A stretch of DNA of 40,189 nt. Source: a virus. Position numbers: made by a program. The DNA lies in the IMG/VR virus record IMGVR_UViG_3300023284_001453; one strand, 5' to 3'. This document shows, one piece after another, positions 27,001 through 30,000 of the stretch (within the stretch, counting starts at the first letter, position 1; every line of letters starts with the position of its first letter).

Positions 27001-30000
27001 TAACACCCTGTATAGAGAAAAATCCAATCATATATAAGAACAATGCGCTGTCAATTGGAGTTCCAAGGGCGCTTGATAACAATACACGTTGCGGGAACGG
27101 ACGTCCTGTAAACGAATAAACAGCCCAATCTGCAAACTCACTGACAAGAAATGCCGTAACACTTGCTATAGCAATAGTTGGATCTGCTAAGAAATAACTT
27201 AACACACCAGCCAGCAACATTGCTGGAATAACATAATGTCCAATTTCCCTCTGTGCAAAATCACGAAACACAAAAATCAAACCAACCAAAAATGTCGCAG
27301 TAGGAATAACAATACCCTCTCCTAGCGGCAATATTGGCAAAACACCAAACGCATAGTTTACTATTACAATTGACGCAACATAAAGCAACGTCCACCAAAT
27401 TTTTAAATCTTTAATCATTTTCTTCATTCCATAATGGGTTTATTATTTCATAATCTTCAAAAGAAGATAGCTCTGCAAAACCACAAACTGAATATCCAAG
27501 ATCCATATTCAATTTCATATAATCATCTTTGTCAAACTTACCATTTTGATAATCAATACACAACTGATTTAGATCGAGCCTACCTGTGTTGAAAAGATAA
27601 TCAAGCACAGTGTTCGTAGGAAACCTTTGAACTCCATGCTCATCAATATATGTTTCGTATGGTTGTCCGTTTACTAAGGTTATAATCCTGTCGCCGGGTT
27701 TGTAATCTTTCATATTTTCTTTTTATTACCTTTTTCGTATACAAATTTTTTACTACAATAAAAACAAATAGCATAATTTTTATGTTCCGGTATCACATAC
27801 CAGACAATTGGATGATCATGTGGTTCTTCGGGACCTGAACACACTACGTTCCTAGAGTGTACTATAACAGTTTCTTTTTCCATATATCATTCCAACCAAC
27901 CCATCTCCTTTAGGAAGTCACATTCGACACATAGCTTTGGAACAGCACATGTAAAACTTTCTGGTAATACAATTGTTCCATCGCATACCTTACAATAAAA
28001 AAACATAGGAGATCCAGCATACAAGGAAGAGTTATCTATCTTGTCAGGAGGATTATCCTGTCTTTCTTTTAACGCTGCTAATGCCTTTTGTTTTTCTGTT
28101 AAGCTAGATTTTTCCATATTACCAATTCCAAAATGCTTTACTTACTTTTTCAACTTTTTCTTTAAAAGTATTTTCTTGTGATAATGCAATCATAACAGCA
28201 ATCATAACAATTAGATAAAAAAGCATCCAGATCGCAGCAGCACCTGATCCAATTGCGACAAGAAGATGGACAGCGCCGCCAAAGCCCAGAAAAACGACAC
28301 CAACCATTAACGCTACCGCCACGATAGCTTTAATCATAATTTTAAAGAATGTAAACACTTCTACCTCCTATTTTTTAAAAGCAGCCGTATATTCACCTCT
28401 AGTCTGTCCACATGCTGCGCCAGTTTTTGATCCATCCGATGCATGATATTCTACAGTGTAGCCATCTTTCTTTAAAGCATCGGTAAATTCTTGTATCTTA
28501 GGACTGCCAGTAAATGCAATACCTGGAACTGGATTAAATTGTCCAAACTTAAGATACCAACTTGTATCCAAGTGTTTTCTAATCAATTCCAAATCTTCAT
28601 CGCGGTCGTTAACCCCATCCATAAGAGCAAAATTAAGCTCTATAGGTCTGTTAGGCTGGTTCTTTCTGTAGGTCTCCATCGCAGCGACAACTTCTTCTAC
28701 CGAATGAGCTAACGGCATTATTTCTTTTCTTATCACTGGATCTAAGCTATGCATTGAAACTTGTAGCTTAAAAGGAACGTCAAACTCTTCGTTAGAAAGA
28801 TCGACAATCCTCTTCGGCGCAGCACCCGATGTTGATAGAGCTAAGCGACAGTTTGAATAGTATCTTGGAAGATATTTCATTGTCCTAACGACATTGTTGT
28901 AGTTTAGAAGCGGTTCTCCTTCGCCCATAAAAGAGAATAATATCACCTTATCTTTTACGAGATTATTAGCTAACATCGTGTGACATTGAAGTAGCATTTC
29001 TTCGCATGTTAGATTTAACGTTTTTTCAGGACCAGGACTGGCACAGAAAGTACACCCTACCGAACAACTTAATTGTGTTGAAAAACATACTACTTGTTTT
29101 TCTGGTCTGTTAAAATAACATGCTTCAGCCTTCGTGTTGTCTAATAAATCAATCAGCATCTTTTGAACTGATGCTTGTCCCATTGGAATTGCTTGTTCTG
29201 TCATATTTTTGCTCCTTATATTCTTATATTACATTTCGTCCCATTGACCGATGGAGACAATATTATCGTTATCGTCAAATTCTGCTTCAAAATGAGCTCG
29301 ATATCCCGGCATAACTTCAACAAGCGTTTTCGCTCGTTTTGTATACAAATCATGTGTTCGAATATCATGAGATGTATTTGATTTTTGGAGAAGCATTAGA
29401 AACTGTTGTAAGTCTGTCATATTTTTGCTCCTTATTTTGGTGCCCGTAGAGGGAGTCGAACCCCCACTCCCAAAGGAACTGGATCTTGAATCCAGCGTGG
29501 CTACCGTTTCACCATACGGGCTTTATTTTGCTTTGGGCAATGTCACTGTAACTGTTGTCCCAACTCCAAATTCGCTTACGACATCAATGCTTCCGCCCAT
29601 AAGCCCTGCTAATTCGATAGATAACGGCAAGCCTAATCCTGTGCCTTCTTGTTCTCGATCAAATCCCGAATTTACCTGACCGAATTTTGTTAAGGCAGAC
29701 TTTAATCCCTCTTCGTCCATACCCATACCATTATCTTCGACGCTAATAACTACATTATCGCCAACAGCACATCTAATATCGATGCTGCCATTCATATCTG
29801 TAAACTTAACAGAATTCGACAACAAATTCAATATAATTTGTTTTAACCGAATTGGATCAGCATACACATATAAATCATCGCAATTTGTTTTGACCTCAAC
29901 GTTGATTAGCTTTTCTTGTGCCCTTTCAGCAATAAATCCTATACAAGCTTTAAAAATCGAATTTACACTGACATTTTCTGGATAGACCTCGGTCTTGCCA

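Follow-up and report, generated by a model that had tools for sequence, protein, structure and literature searches.

A predicted domain-less enzyme of the RlmN/Cfr family in an aquatic phage, and a repeated leader in the variable slot beside it

The present analysis concerns a radical S-adenosylmethionine (SAM) gene of IMGVR_UViG_3300023284_001453, a whole metagenome contig of the Joint Genome Institute (JGI) whose 40,189 bp are called here the window, and the short leader that this gene shares with the small gene preceding it. The window comes from a large tailed phage, marine or aquatic. In the reading that we favour, with moderate confidence, the gene encodes an active class A methyl synthase of a distinct subfamily that is devoid of the N-terminal domain of RlmN and Cfr, its target is likely an adenosine in host RNA, and the two leaders mark a recombination junction.

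Family, catalytic residues and selection

The gene and the codons of its mechanistic cysteines are located as follows.

28368-29204, minus strand: radical SAM gene ("mini-RlmN", phage clade A), an open reading frame (ORF) of 278 aa
29085-29087, 29064-29066, 29052-29054 and 29043-29045, minus strand: codons of C40, C47, C51 and C54, by direct reading
28410-28412, minus strand: codon of C265 within GAACGQ (G262-A-A-C265-G-Q), the equivalent of E. coli C355 and Cfr C338

A previous inspection of the DNA, made without database searches (the sequence-only reading), had described a 278-aa ORF with a C-x6-CxxxCxxC motif and a C-terminal GAACGQ cysteine, and both are found at these positions, the motif being C40-x6-C47-x3-C51-x2-C54. 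C47, C51 and C54 are the equivalents of E. coli RlmN C125, C129 and C132, which are the ligands of the [4Fe-4S] cluster. C40 corresponds to the resolving cysteine C118 and pairs with the mutant alanine of the C118A structure 4pl1 in a phmmer search of the Protein Data Bank (PDB), and C265 aligns with the cysteine that carries the methyl group in RlmN and Cfr. An alignment of 37 short relatives, which reaches down to 28% identity, shows no variation at E27 (equivalent to E105), C40, C47, C51, C54, G94-x-G96-E97-P98 and C265-G266.

The protein belongs to the radical SAM superfamily according to Pfam (PF04055, 2.1e-13, over the gathering score). Its top NCBIfam match is the RlmN model TIGR00048 (2.8e-42, 144.9 bits, profile positions 81-344 of 355), at a score that falls short of the curated cut-off of 290 bits, while the Cfr models TIGR04432/NF000424 give 76.7-77.2 bits against cut-offs of 530-550. 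In the PDB, phmmer ranks RlmN 6fz6 (2.6e-28) and E. coli RlmN (4e-24) before Cfr 9p0p (8e-16). The AlphaFold2 model is compact (pLDDT 93.2) and is matched by Foldseek to RlmN structures with TMq 0.76-0.83 and E-values of 1e-14 to 3e-18; the ten best PDB fold matches are all RlmN, and the next, NifB (2.6e-7), is at least seven orders of magnitude weaker. Apart from the N-terminal domain, the sequence and fold marks of class A (the RlmN/Cfr family) are present: the two extra cysteines, the E105 equivalent, the GxGEP motif and RlmN/Cfr as the closest fold. Moreover RlmN gives the best match, where a SPASM or twitch enzyme would have spoken against the assignment, and the second cysteine shows no variation. 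The proposal of an RlmN/Cfr-type radical SAM methylase with both mechanistic cysteines is thus supported by alignment, profile and fold.

The gene is under purifying selection: against three relatives the ratio of nonsynonymous to synonymous divergence (dN/dS) is about 0.08, at a dS near 1.3, that is, near saturation. It starts with a strong Shine-Dalgarno (SD) sequence and an ATG, and its product is predicted to be a functional enzyme.

The missing N-terminal domain

Residue 1 of the protein aligns to residue 81 of E. coli RlmN and to residue 65 of Cfr. The Pfam search returned PF04055 only, with no match to PF21016, the HhH2 N-terminal domain, and an upstream extension of the ORF is impossible. 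The lack of this domain, already noticed in the sequence, is hence borne out by the ORF limits, by Pfam and by the alignment. Electron cryo-microscopy of Cfr on ribosomal RNA has located a hinge behind the HhH2 domain, at F59-N65, and has revealed that this domain anchors the enzyme onto the H90/H91/H92 junction (PMC13001441). Since the phage protein starts at RlmN 81/Cfr 65 and its model opens with three strands, the beta'1-3 extension, its boundary falls at the hinge after HhH2. The protein is composed of beta-extension, core and tail, with the RNA-anchoring domain cleanly missing.

The adjacent 63-aa ORF was considered as a split-off N-terminal domain and rejected. It has no Pfam match and is predicted as one helix and four strands, not as a four-helix HhH2 fold; furthermore it is missing in L002, the relative with an 83% identical radical SAM protein, and it is present in L016, which has no radical SAM gene.

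A separate branch of short forms

A protein search returned a run of 254-306-aa proteins with PF04055 only, followed by canonical RlmN of 340-390 aa with PF21016 at 30-32% identity; in a profile search of 1.84 billion representatives, short forms made up about 60 of the top 150 clusters (50% identity). In neighbour-joining (NJ) trees the short forms are split from RlmN and Cfr in 100 of 100 bootstrap replicates, and Cfr clusters with RlmN, apart from them. Within the short branch, clade A, which contains the phage protein, and clade C each have a bootstrap of 100, and A plus B have 75. Clade A has so far been found only on phage-like metagenomic contigs, which carry terminase, portal, tRNA arrays and nicotinamide adenine dinucleotide (NAD) salvage genes. 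Clade B occupies ordinary chromosomal contexts in metagenome-assembled genomes of Patescibacteria, which are ultra-small bacteria, as does clade C (L007), and clade-C-like short forms also occur on IMG/VR contigs. The short homologues in BFVD include a protein of Pseudomonas phage 201phi2-1.

No cellular homologue above 38% identity exists among 185,579 species genomes, no curated model for the short branch is held by NCBIfam, Pfam, PHROGs or PADLOC, and no description of phage or domain-less RlmN-like enzymes was found in the full-text literature searched. As judged from sequence comparison, the protein belongs to a distinct, uncharacterised domain-less subfamily of phages and Patescibacteria with its own active-site shell. 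The membership of the RlmN/Cfr superfamily stands, but the protein is an orthologue of neither enzyme, as it lies on a separate branch in all NJ replicates and scores under the cut-offs of both.

Two kinds of short form deserve mention on their own account. In L092 and L096 (IMG/VR), short RlmN-like ORFs at about 3001-3780 keep the C-terminal CGQ cysteine, but Val-Val-Val stands where the C118-equivalent resolving cysteine would be; these forms may be mechanistically different or inactive. On the phage contig L009 (1-14083) a short radical SAM gene (46% identical) is found among genes for a PurA-like adenylosuccinate synthase, split RF-1 fragments, NAD kinase, NAMPT, an NMNAT-Nudix-like protein (CTP_transf_like plus NUDIX) and NADAR. 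The PurA-like product may be of PurZ type.

The adenine pocket

Ten residues that lie within 5 Å of the target adenine and differ between RlmN and Cfr have been listed; in RlmN they are I109, E111, R114, T116, T171, N172, V174, K345, T346 and R347 (PMC12887959). The corresponding residues are given below in E. coli RlmN numbering.

Position 109: RlmN I; Cfr M; short clade A F
Position 111: RlmN E; Cfr Y; short clade A R
Position 114: RlmN R; Cfr W; short clade A K (conservative)
Position 116: RlmN T; Cfr S; short clade A V
Position 171: RlmN S/T; Cfr D; short clade A I/M (variable)
Position 172: RlmN N; Cfr S; short clade A L
Position 174: RlmN V; Cfr S; short clade A S
Position 345: RlmN K/R; Cfr S; short clade A A/E/Q
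Position 346: RlmN T/S; Cfr Q; short clade A T/S
Position 347: RlmN R; Cfr F; short clade A D

The pocket is conserved inside the short clade, and K114, L172 and S174 are common to clades A, B and C. Eight of the ten clade A residues differ from Cfr, the only match being at 174. The Cfr signature consists of Y97, W101, S103, S151, S153, Q329 and F330, Q329 being tied to C8 methylation (PMC12887959); at these sites the phage protein has R33, K36, V38, L89, S91, S256 and D257, sharing one of the seven (S153). The inspection of specificity residues that had been suggested thus yields neither the RlmN set (one of ten kept) nor the Cfr set. In the model the C-terminal helix is of RlmN type, the extension of the RlmN alpha1/beta2 loop is shortened, and the Cfr alpha5/beta6 extension is absent.

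The leader repeat and the locus

On the minus strand the order of genes is kinase (30428-29523), tRNA-Leu(CAA) (29521-29438), 63-aa ORF (29420-29229) and radical SAM gene (29204-28368), followed by small ORFs. The elements around the repeat are these.

29438-29521, minus strand: tRNA-Leu(CAA), anticodon loop UUCAAGA with G37 (ARAGORN; Rfam 53.9 bits)
29413-29435, minus strand: leader copy 2, translation-initiation region of the 63-aa ORF, 23 nt identical to copy 1
29229-29420, minus strand: conserved small gene of 63 aa, one helix and a four-stranded sheet
29197-29219, minus strand: leader copy 1, translation-initiation region of the radical SAM gene, ATAAGGAGCAAAAATATGACAGA, with SD AAGGAG at 29212-29217 and ATG at 29202-29204

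It had been proposed that one 20-mer gives both genes identical leaders and that its second copy abuts the 3' end of the tRNA-Leu gene. In fact the 20-mer occurs at 29200-29219 and 29416-29435 with no mismatch, the two copies agree throughout 23 nt and, on extension, at 25 of 26 nt, and a gap of 2 nt separates the end of copy 2 from the 3' end of the tRNA. No third site with up to three mismatches exists in the window, and two matches were obtained in none of 100 dinucleotide shuffles. Elsewhere, one exact match was found among the 2.9 million viral contigs of IMG/VR, at the start of an unrelated gene.

The homologous leader of the radical SAM gene is ATATAAGGAGCAAAAAATATGACAG in L002 and TACGAGGAGCAAAAAAATGACAGAA in L013, a syntenic relative on a 142-kb contig, in which the position of copy 2 is occupied by AAAATAAGGAGCAAAATATGACAGAT. 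In the relatives too both genes start with ATGACAGA behind GGAGCAAAA; some of the similarity between the leaders is hence ancient and kept by selection. The leader of the radical SAM gene is almost unchanged between the window and L002 although synonymous sites are near saturation.

The loci of the relatives differ in their content. In L002 the order is kinase, tRNA-Leu, a single leader (AATATAAGGAGCAAAAAATATGACAG) and the radical SAM gene, without the 63-aa ORF. In L013-15 the kinase, tRNA-Leu, leader and 63-aa ORF are followed by a zf-CHCC gene and then by the radical SAM gene, whose leader lies within the 3' end of zf-CHCC. L016 has a PAS-kinase, a tRNA(CTA), tRNA-Leu, the 63-aa ORF and other genes, without the radical SAM gene, and L001 has tRNA-Leu, an unrelated 66-aa ORF and the radical SAM gene. 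When the window is compared with L002 and with L013 by BLASTN, the breakpoints coincide exactly with the leaders: L002 is short of exactly one 216-bp unit, composed of the 63-aa ORF and one leader, and the window lacks, at 29216-29221, 149 bp of the zf-CHCC gene (L013 10206-10354).

The tRNA-Leu gene is present in all close relatives (L001, L002, L013-15 and L016) and follows the kinase in all four that carry one, and the 63-aa ORF, where present, normally comes after it. The repeats bound the 216-bp unit and leave the tRNA outside; the tRNA is kept both in L002, which has no unit, and in L016, which has no radical SAM gene. Its position 37 is A in L002, L016 and L001 and G in the window and L013, and the anticodon-stem pairs 28-42 and 29-41 covary between window/L013 and L002/L016. 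The tRNA-Leu is a fixed landmark, outside any mobile unit, and the earlier suggestion that the tRNA plus the small ORF were inserted or duplicated as a cassette is contradicted. Because the breakpoints of rearrangements among relatives map to the leaders, we take the repeat for a recombination junction, placed in a variable slot, and not for the footprint of a tRNA cassette. Recombination or gene conversion at this junction best accounts for the perfect identity over 23 nt, and the most parsimonious history, whose direction we infer, is a loss of the 63-aa ORF from L002 when its two leaders recombined.

The alternative for the repeat is that strong ribosome-binding sites arose convergently at the two genes, the identical leaders having neither a common history nor any recombination behind them. 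Other genes of the window do start alike (for example AAAATAAGGAGAACGAAAATGACACA at 36464-36489, 77% identity), the 20-mer is also met at the start of a gene in an unrelated phage of IMG/VR, and the preservation of the radical SAM leader between the window and L002 denotes strong selection. We nevertheless consider convergence improbable: the rest of the window and the shuffles give no comparable pair, a single exact match was found in all those viral contigs, and the indel breakpoints coincide with the leaders in both comparisons. Moreover the two leaders differ from each other in L013 (ATAAGGAGCAAAA-TATG versus ACGAGGAGCAAAAAAATG), whereas the pair of the window is identical even at positions that do not belong to the SD sequence.

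Chemistry, substrate and alternative readings

By homology, the protein would employ the methyl-Cys ping-pong radical chemistry of RlmN and Cfr. C47, C51 and C54 would hold the [4Fe-4S] cluster, a first SAM would methylate C265, and a second SAM would give the 5'-deoxyadenosyl radical, after which the activated methyl group of C265 would attack the amidine carbon of the target adenine; C40 would then resolve the covalent adduct of enzyme and substrate. The gene would act as a stand-alone auxiliary gene, variably present in a hyperplastic region of the phage genome.

An adenosine in host RNA is the most likely substrate because of the family and of the chromosomal relatives in Patescibacteria. 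Methylation would probably occur at C2 rather than at C8, since position 346 is Thr/Ser as in RlmN and not Gln as in Cfr. The altered pocket may indicate a target or regiochemistry other than A2503 and A37. A bolder form of this idea, which we put forward tentatively and hold to be possible at best, is that mini-RlmN constitutes a third functional class of class A methylases whose target is neither C2 or C8 of A2503 nor A37 of tRNA; the remodelled pocket (K114, V116, L172, S174 and D347) and the missing anchor would then be the mark of such a target. Candidates would be another adenosine in host or phage RNA, or an adenine in DNA or in a nucleotide, and the modification would alter host translation or serve for self-marking. 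Reprogramming or protection of ribosomes or tRNAs, suggested in the sequence-only reading, is speculation.

The tRNAs of the window were considered as substrates and discarded. Position 37 of the tRNA-Leu(CAA) is a G in the window as in L013, so that this tRNA is no m2A37 (2-methyladenosine-37) substrate, and the tRNA-Met(CAT) has U36-A37-A38, in which A38 disfavours RlmN (PMC5130265). Linkage to tRNA genes is not a trait of the family either, as a tRNA lies within 3 kb of the gene in just 2 of 15 IMG/VR loci; the association seen here is local synteny only.

Several observations weigh against the reading that we favour. The RNA-anchoring domain is missing, and in Cfr the substitutions R25A and Q28A in that domain lower activity and resistance (PMC2836569). 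The clade A consensus is unlike RlmN at eight of the ten adenine-shell positions (346 alone is shared and 171 is variable), and R347 is replaced by an invariant Asp. Clade A proteins have a mean net charge of -6.5 and an isoelectric point (pI) of 5.75, against +3.6 and 8.0 for RlmN cores, an acidity that would be unexpected for an enzyme binding a large RNA unaided and that we regard as suggestive only. All-versus-all BLAST of the neighbours in nine loci gave no conserved partner gene, sharing being limited to the closest relatives. The NJ tree is unrooted, and a tree of this kind does not distinguish an ancestral from a derived short form. Finally, the indels associated with the leaders can be read as insertion or as deletion.

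Among the competing explanations, the simplest is a phage copy of housekeeping RlmN that makes m2A2503 and the usual m2A37, the N-terminal domain being dispensable. RlmN indeed tops the profile, sequence and fold matches, position 346 and the C-terminal helix are as in RlmN and unlike Cfr, the relatives are annotated automatically by JGI as 23S rRNA (adenine2503-C2)-methyltransferase, and the domain-less Patescibacteria proteins in chromosomal contexts might be the housekeeping enzyme. Against this stand a score of 145 bits where 290 are required, the absence of HhH2 and the shortened alpha1/beta2 loop, the retention of one adenine-shell residue in ten plus the conservative R114K, the full bootstrap split from RlmN, and the consideration that a host would normally have its own RlmN, so that a redundant copy has no obvious benefit; taken together, they leave this explanation doubtful. 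A Cfr-like C8 methylase of A2503, giving resistance to PhLOPSA antibiotics (phenicols, lincosamides, oxazolidinones, pleuromutilins, streptogramin A) or to ribosome toxins during infection, could appeal to the common superfamily, to the match with 9p0p and to Ser at 174 as in Cfr S153. It is very improbable in view of Cfr model scores of 77-81 bits against cut-offs of 468-550, far under the RlmN score, of Ser or Thr at the Q329 site, of a C-terminal helix and a short alpha5/beta6 loop that are the reverse of Cfr, of the grouping of Cfr with RlmN, and of the lost H90-H92 anchor. Cfr-type resistance is predicted to be unlikely because of the single conserved signature residue in seven.

A target outside RNA, such as an adenine in phage DNA, a free nucleotide or a small molecule (for instance in DNA hypermodification), would agree with the loss of the anchoring domain, with the remodelled pocket and its Arg347 to Asp change, and with the acidity of clade A. 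In addition, the radical SAM gene of L009 adjoins PurA-like and nucleotide/NAD metabolism genes, and in the window a queuosine-precursor-transporter-like gene lies 1 kb off. However, we know of no class A radical SAM methylase that acts outside RNA, all the known ones being RNA enzymes. Genes for DpdA, glycosyltransferase and deoxynucleoside monophosphate kinase are not consistently linked in the BLAST of neighbours, the same pocket residues are found in chromosomal genes of Patescibacteria, and the acidity may mirror general proteome composition; we give this explanation only a slight probability. The least credible view is that a captured host rlmN was truncated at its 5' end and persists as a decaying remnant without function. 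The protein is shorter than every characterised member of the family and the gene is missing in some close relatives (L016), but dN/dS is 0.08 with near-saturated synonymous sites, the catalytic residues are invariant and the start point is the same across dozens of clusters at less than 50% identity, the gene has its strong SD and ATG, and the model is confident and compact. Selection and conservation effectively refute it.

Implications

To our knowledge, characterisation within the class A radical SAM methylases has been confined to RlmN and Cfr, each of which holds its RNA by an N-terminal HhH2 domain. A large, conserved, domain-less branch with a different pocket is thus a natural experiment on the choice of substrate and of carbon. 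Action of the phage enzymes on ribosomes or tRNAs would amount to a new route by which phages tune host translation; if the target is something else, class A chemistry would be broader than known. Automatic annotation that labels such virome genes as Cfr-like resistance or as 23S rRNA (adenine2503-C2)-methyltransferase should also be taken with caution. On a small scale, but clearly, the leader repeat illustrates how genes in the accessory regions of phages are shuffled at translation-initiation sequences that they share. The gene, whose function is a prediction only, offers a lead that is clean and open to test, for the enzymology of RNA modification as well as for phage biology.

The window and its other genes

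The window, with about 38% of guanine plus cytosine, carries genes for baseplate and virion proteins, homing endonucleases, Hsp20, RpiB, aldehyde dehydrogenase and a vault-like protein, together with two tRNAs; an Rfam scan gave these two tRNAs and no further RNA element. No near cultured phage was found, since megablast of 20 kb gave 0 matches and tblastn matches to GenBank phages were all at 35% identity or less. The other genes around the radical SAM gene are the following.

29523-30428, minus strand: soluble HisKA plus HATPase_c histidine kinase, upstream, without sensor or transmembrane region
28119-28358, minus strand: hydrophobic ORF of 79 aa, directly downstream of the radical SAM gene, kept in the closest relatives only, no family match
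27710-27883, minus strand: zf-CHCC gene of 57 aa (PF10276, 9e-10), three genes downstream of the radical SAM gene

Downstream of the radical SAM gene the minus strand continues with the hydrophobic ORF, with further small ORFs that include the zf-CHCC gene (27883-27710) and with a Vut_1/YhhQ-like gene. According to gene contexts and reciprocal BLAST, the zf-CHCC homologue of L013-15 is located between the 63-aa ORF and the radical SAM gene. A promoter-like sequence, TTGACA-16-TATGCT, lies at 30495-30468, in a scan for promoters and terminators that did not rise above shuffles. The kinase, tRNA-Leu, small ORFs and radical SAM gene are probably co-transcribed, which we suggest weakly because no terminator-like site was found between the kinase and radical SAM genes. 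No response regulator is present among the ORFs of the window that were scanned, and at the position of the kinase L016 has a 568-aa PAS-domain kinase. PADLOC defence models gave no match for the radical SAM protein or the small ORFs and one insignificant match for the kinase.

The Vut_1/YhhQ-like membrane protein (165 aa, 26930-27427, minus strand; phrog_4899, 3e-38), of the queuosine-precursor transporter family, is kept in L002 and L013 and hints at the uptake of 7-deazaguanine precursors. In L001 (2195-2270) and L016 (5965-6040) a tRNA with anticodon CTA, called tRNA-Pyl by ARAGORN and of amber-suppressor type, lies just upstream of tRNA-Leu(CAA); none is present in the window, and it may serve TAG recoding or suppression in those phages. 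L013 and L014 have a glutaredoxin and a SufBD-like Fe-S assembly gene between DUF3307 and DUF1508 (L013 5238-7011), which may be relevant to the supply of Fe-S enzymes; their absence from the window at about 32350-32950 is another indel of the accessory region.

An 858-aa ORF (33895-36471, minus strand), also present in L013, contains the Major Vault Protein shoulder (PF11978, 6e-22) and Vault_3 repeats, which is unusual in a phage, and starts with the repeat-like leader at 36464-36489 (77% identity). Homing-endonuclease-like ORFs, one GIY-YIG and SegE-like (23625-24158, plus strand) and one with NUMOD3 (24596-25417, minus strand), flank tRNA-Met(CAT) (24146-24219), and the SegE-like ORF terminates within the tRNA-Met gene, on the opposite strand. 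A 717-aa structural ORF (6832-8388, minus strand), whose PHROG matches are head-decoration or fibre-like, contains four diverged 56-nt copies and a 127-nt pair, at a spacing of 222-558 nt.

Comparison with known systems

In T4-type phages small genes are shuffled modularly at short conserved regulatory sequences, in hyperplastic regions. There, as in the window, small ORFs are gained, lost and moved between conserved flanks, with breakpoints in repeats at gene starts. The T4-type repeat is a promoter stem-loop, whereas that of the window is a translation-initiation region (SD, ATG and the first two codons), for which we infer the mechanism.

With RlmN, an enzyme of dual specificity for C2 of 23S rRNA A2503 and tRNA A37 (TIGR00048; 3RFA, 5HR7, 6FZ6), the phage protein shares the core fold (TMq 0.81-0.83), the beta'1-3 extension, the C-terminal tail and helix, the catalytic set, C355-GQ and Thr/Ser at 346. 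RlmN has the HhH2 domain and a full alpha1/beta2 loop; the phage-encoded protein lacks the former and has the latter shortened, is acidic, reaches half the family cut-off score, lies on the other side of the split, and its clade differs in the pocket at 109, 111, 114, 116, 172, 174, 345 and 347. Cfr (C8 of 23S rRNA A2503; TIGR04432; 9P0P) has in common with it the class A mechanism and cysteines and the Ser at the S153 site. The N-terminal domain that anchors Cfr to H90/H91/H92, Y97, W101, S103, S151, Q329, F330 and the alpha5/beta6 loop are absent from the phage protein, which instead carries a C-terminal helix, and the similarity is far weaker (77 bits).

The same domain-less architecture is found in short COG0820-type phage proteins, such as A0A6J5RTK8 of an uncultured Caudovirales phage (284 aa) and B3FJU2 of 201phi2-1 (302 aa), whose TM-scores to the phage protein are 0.87 and 0.76 in BFVD. 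These short proteins of phages and Patescibacteria are uncharacterised and have 20-38% identity to the protein of the window, whose clade A is well separated from them.

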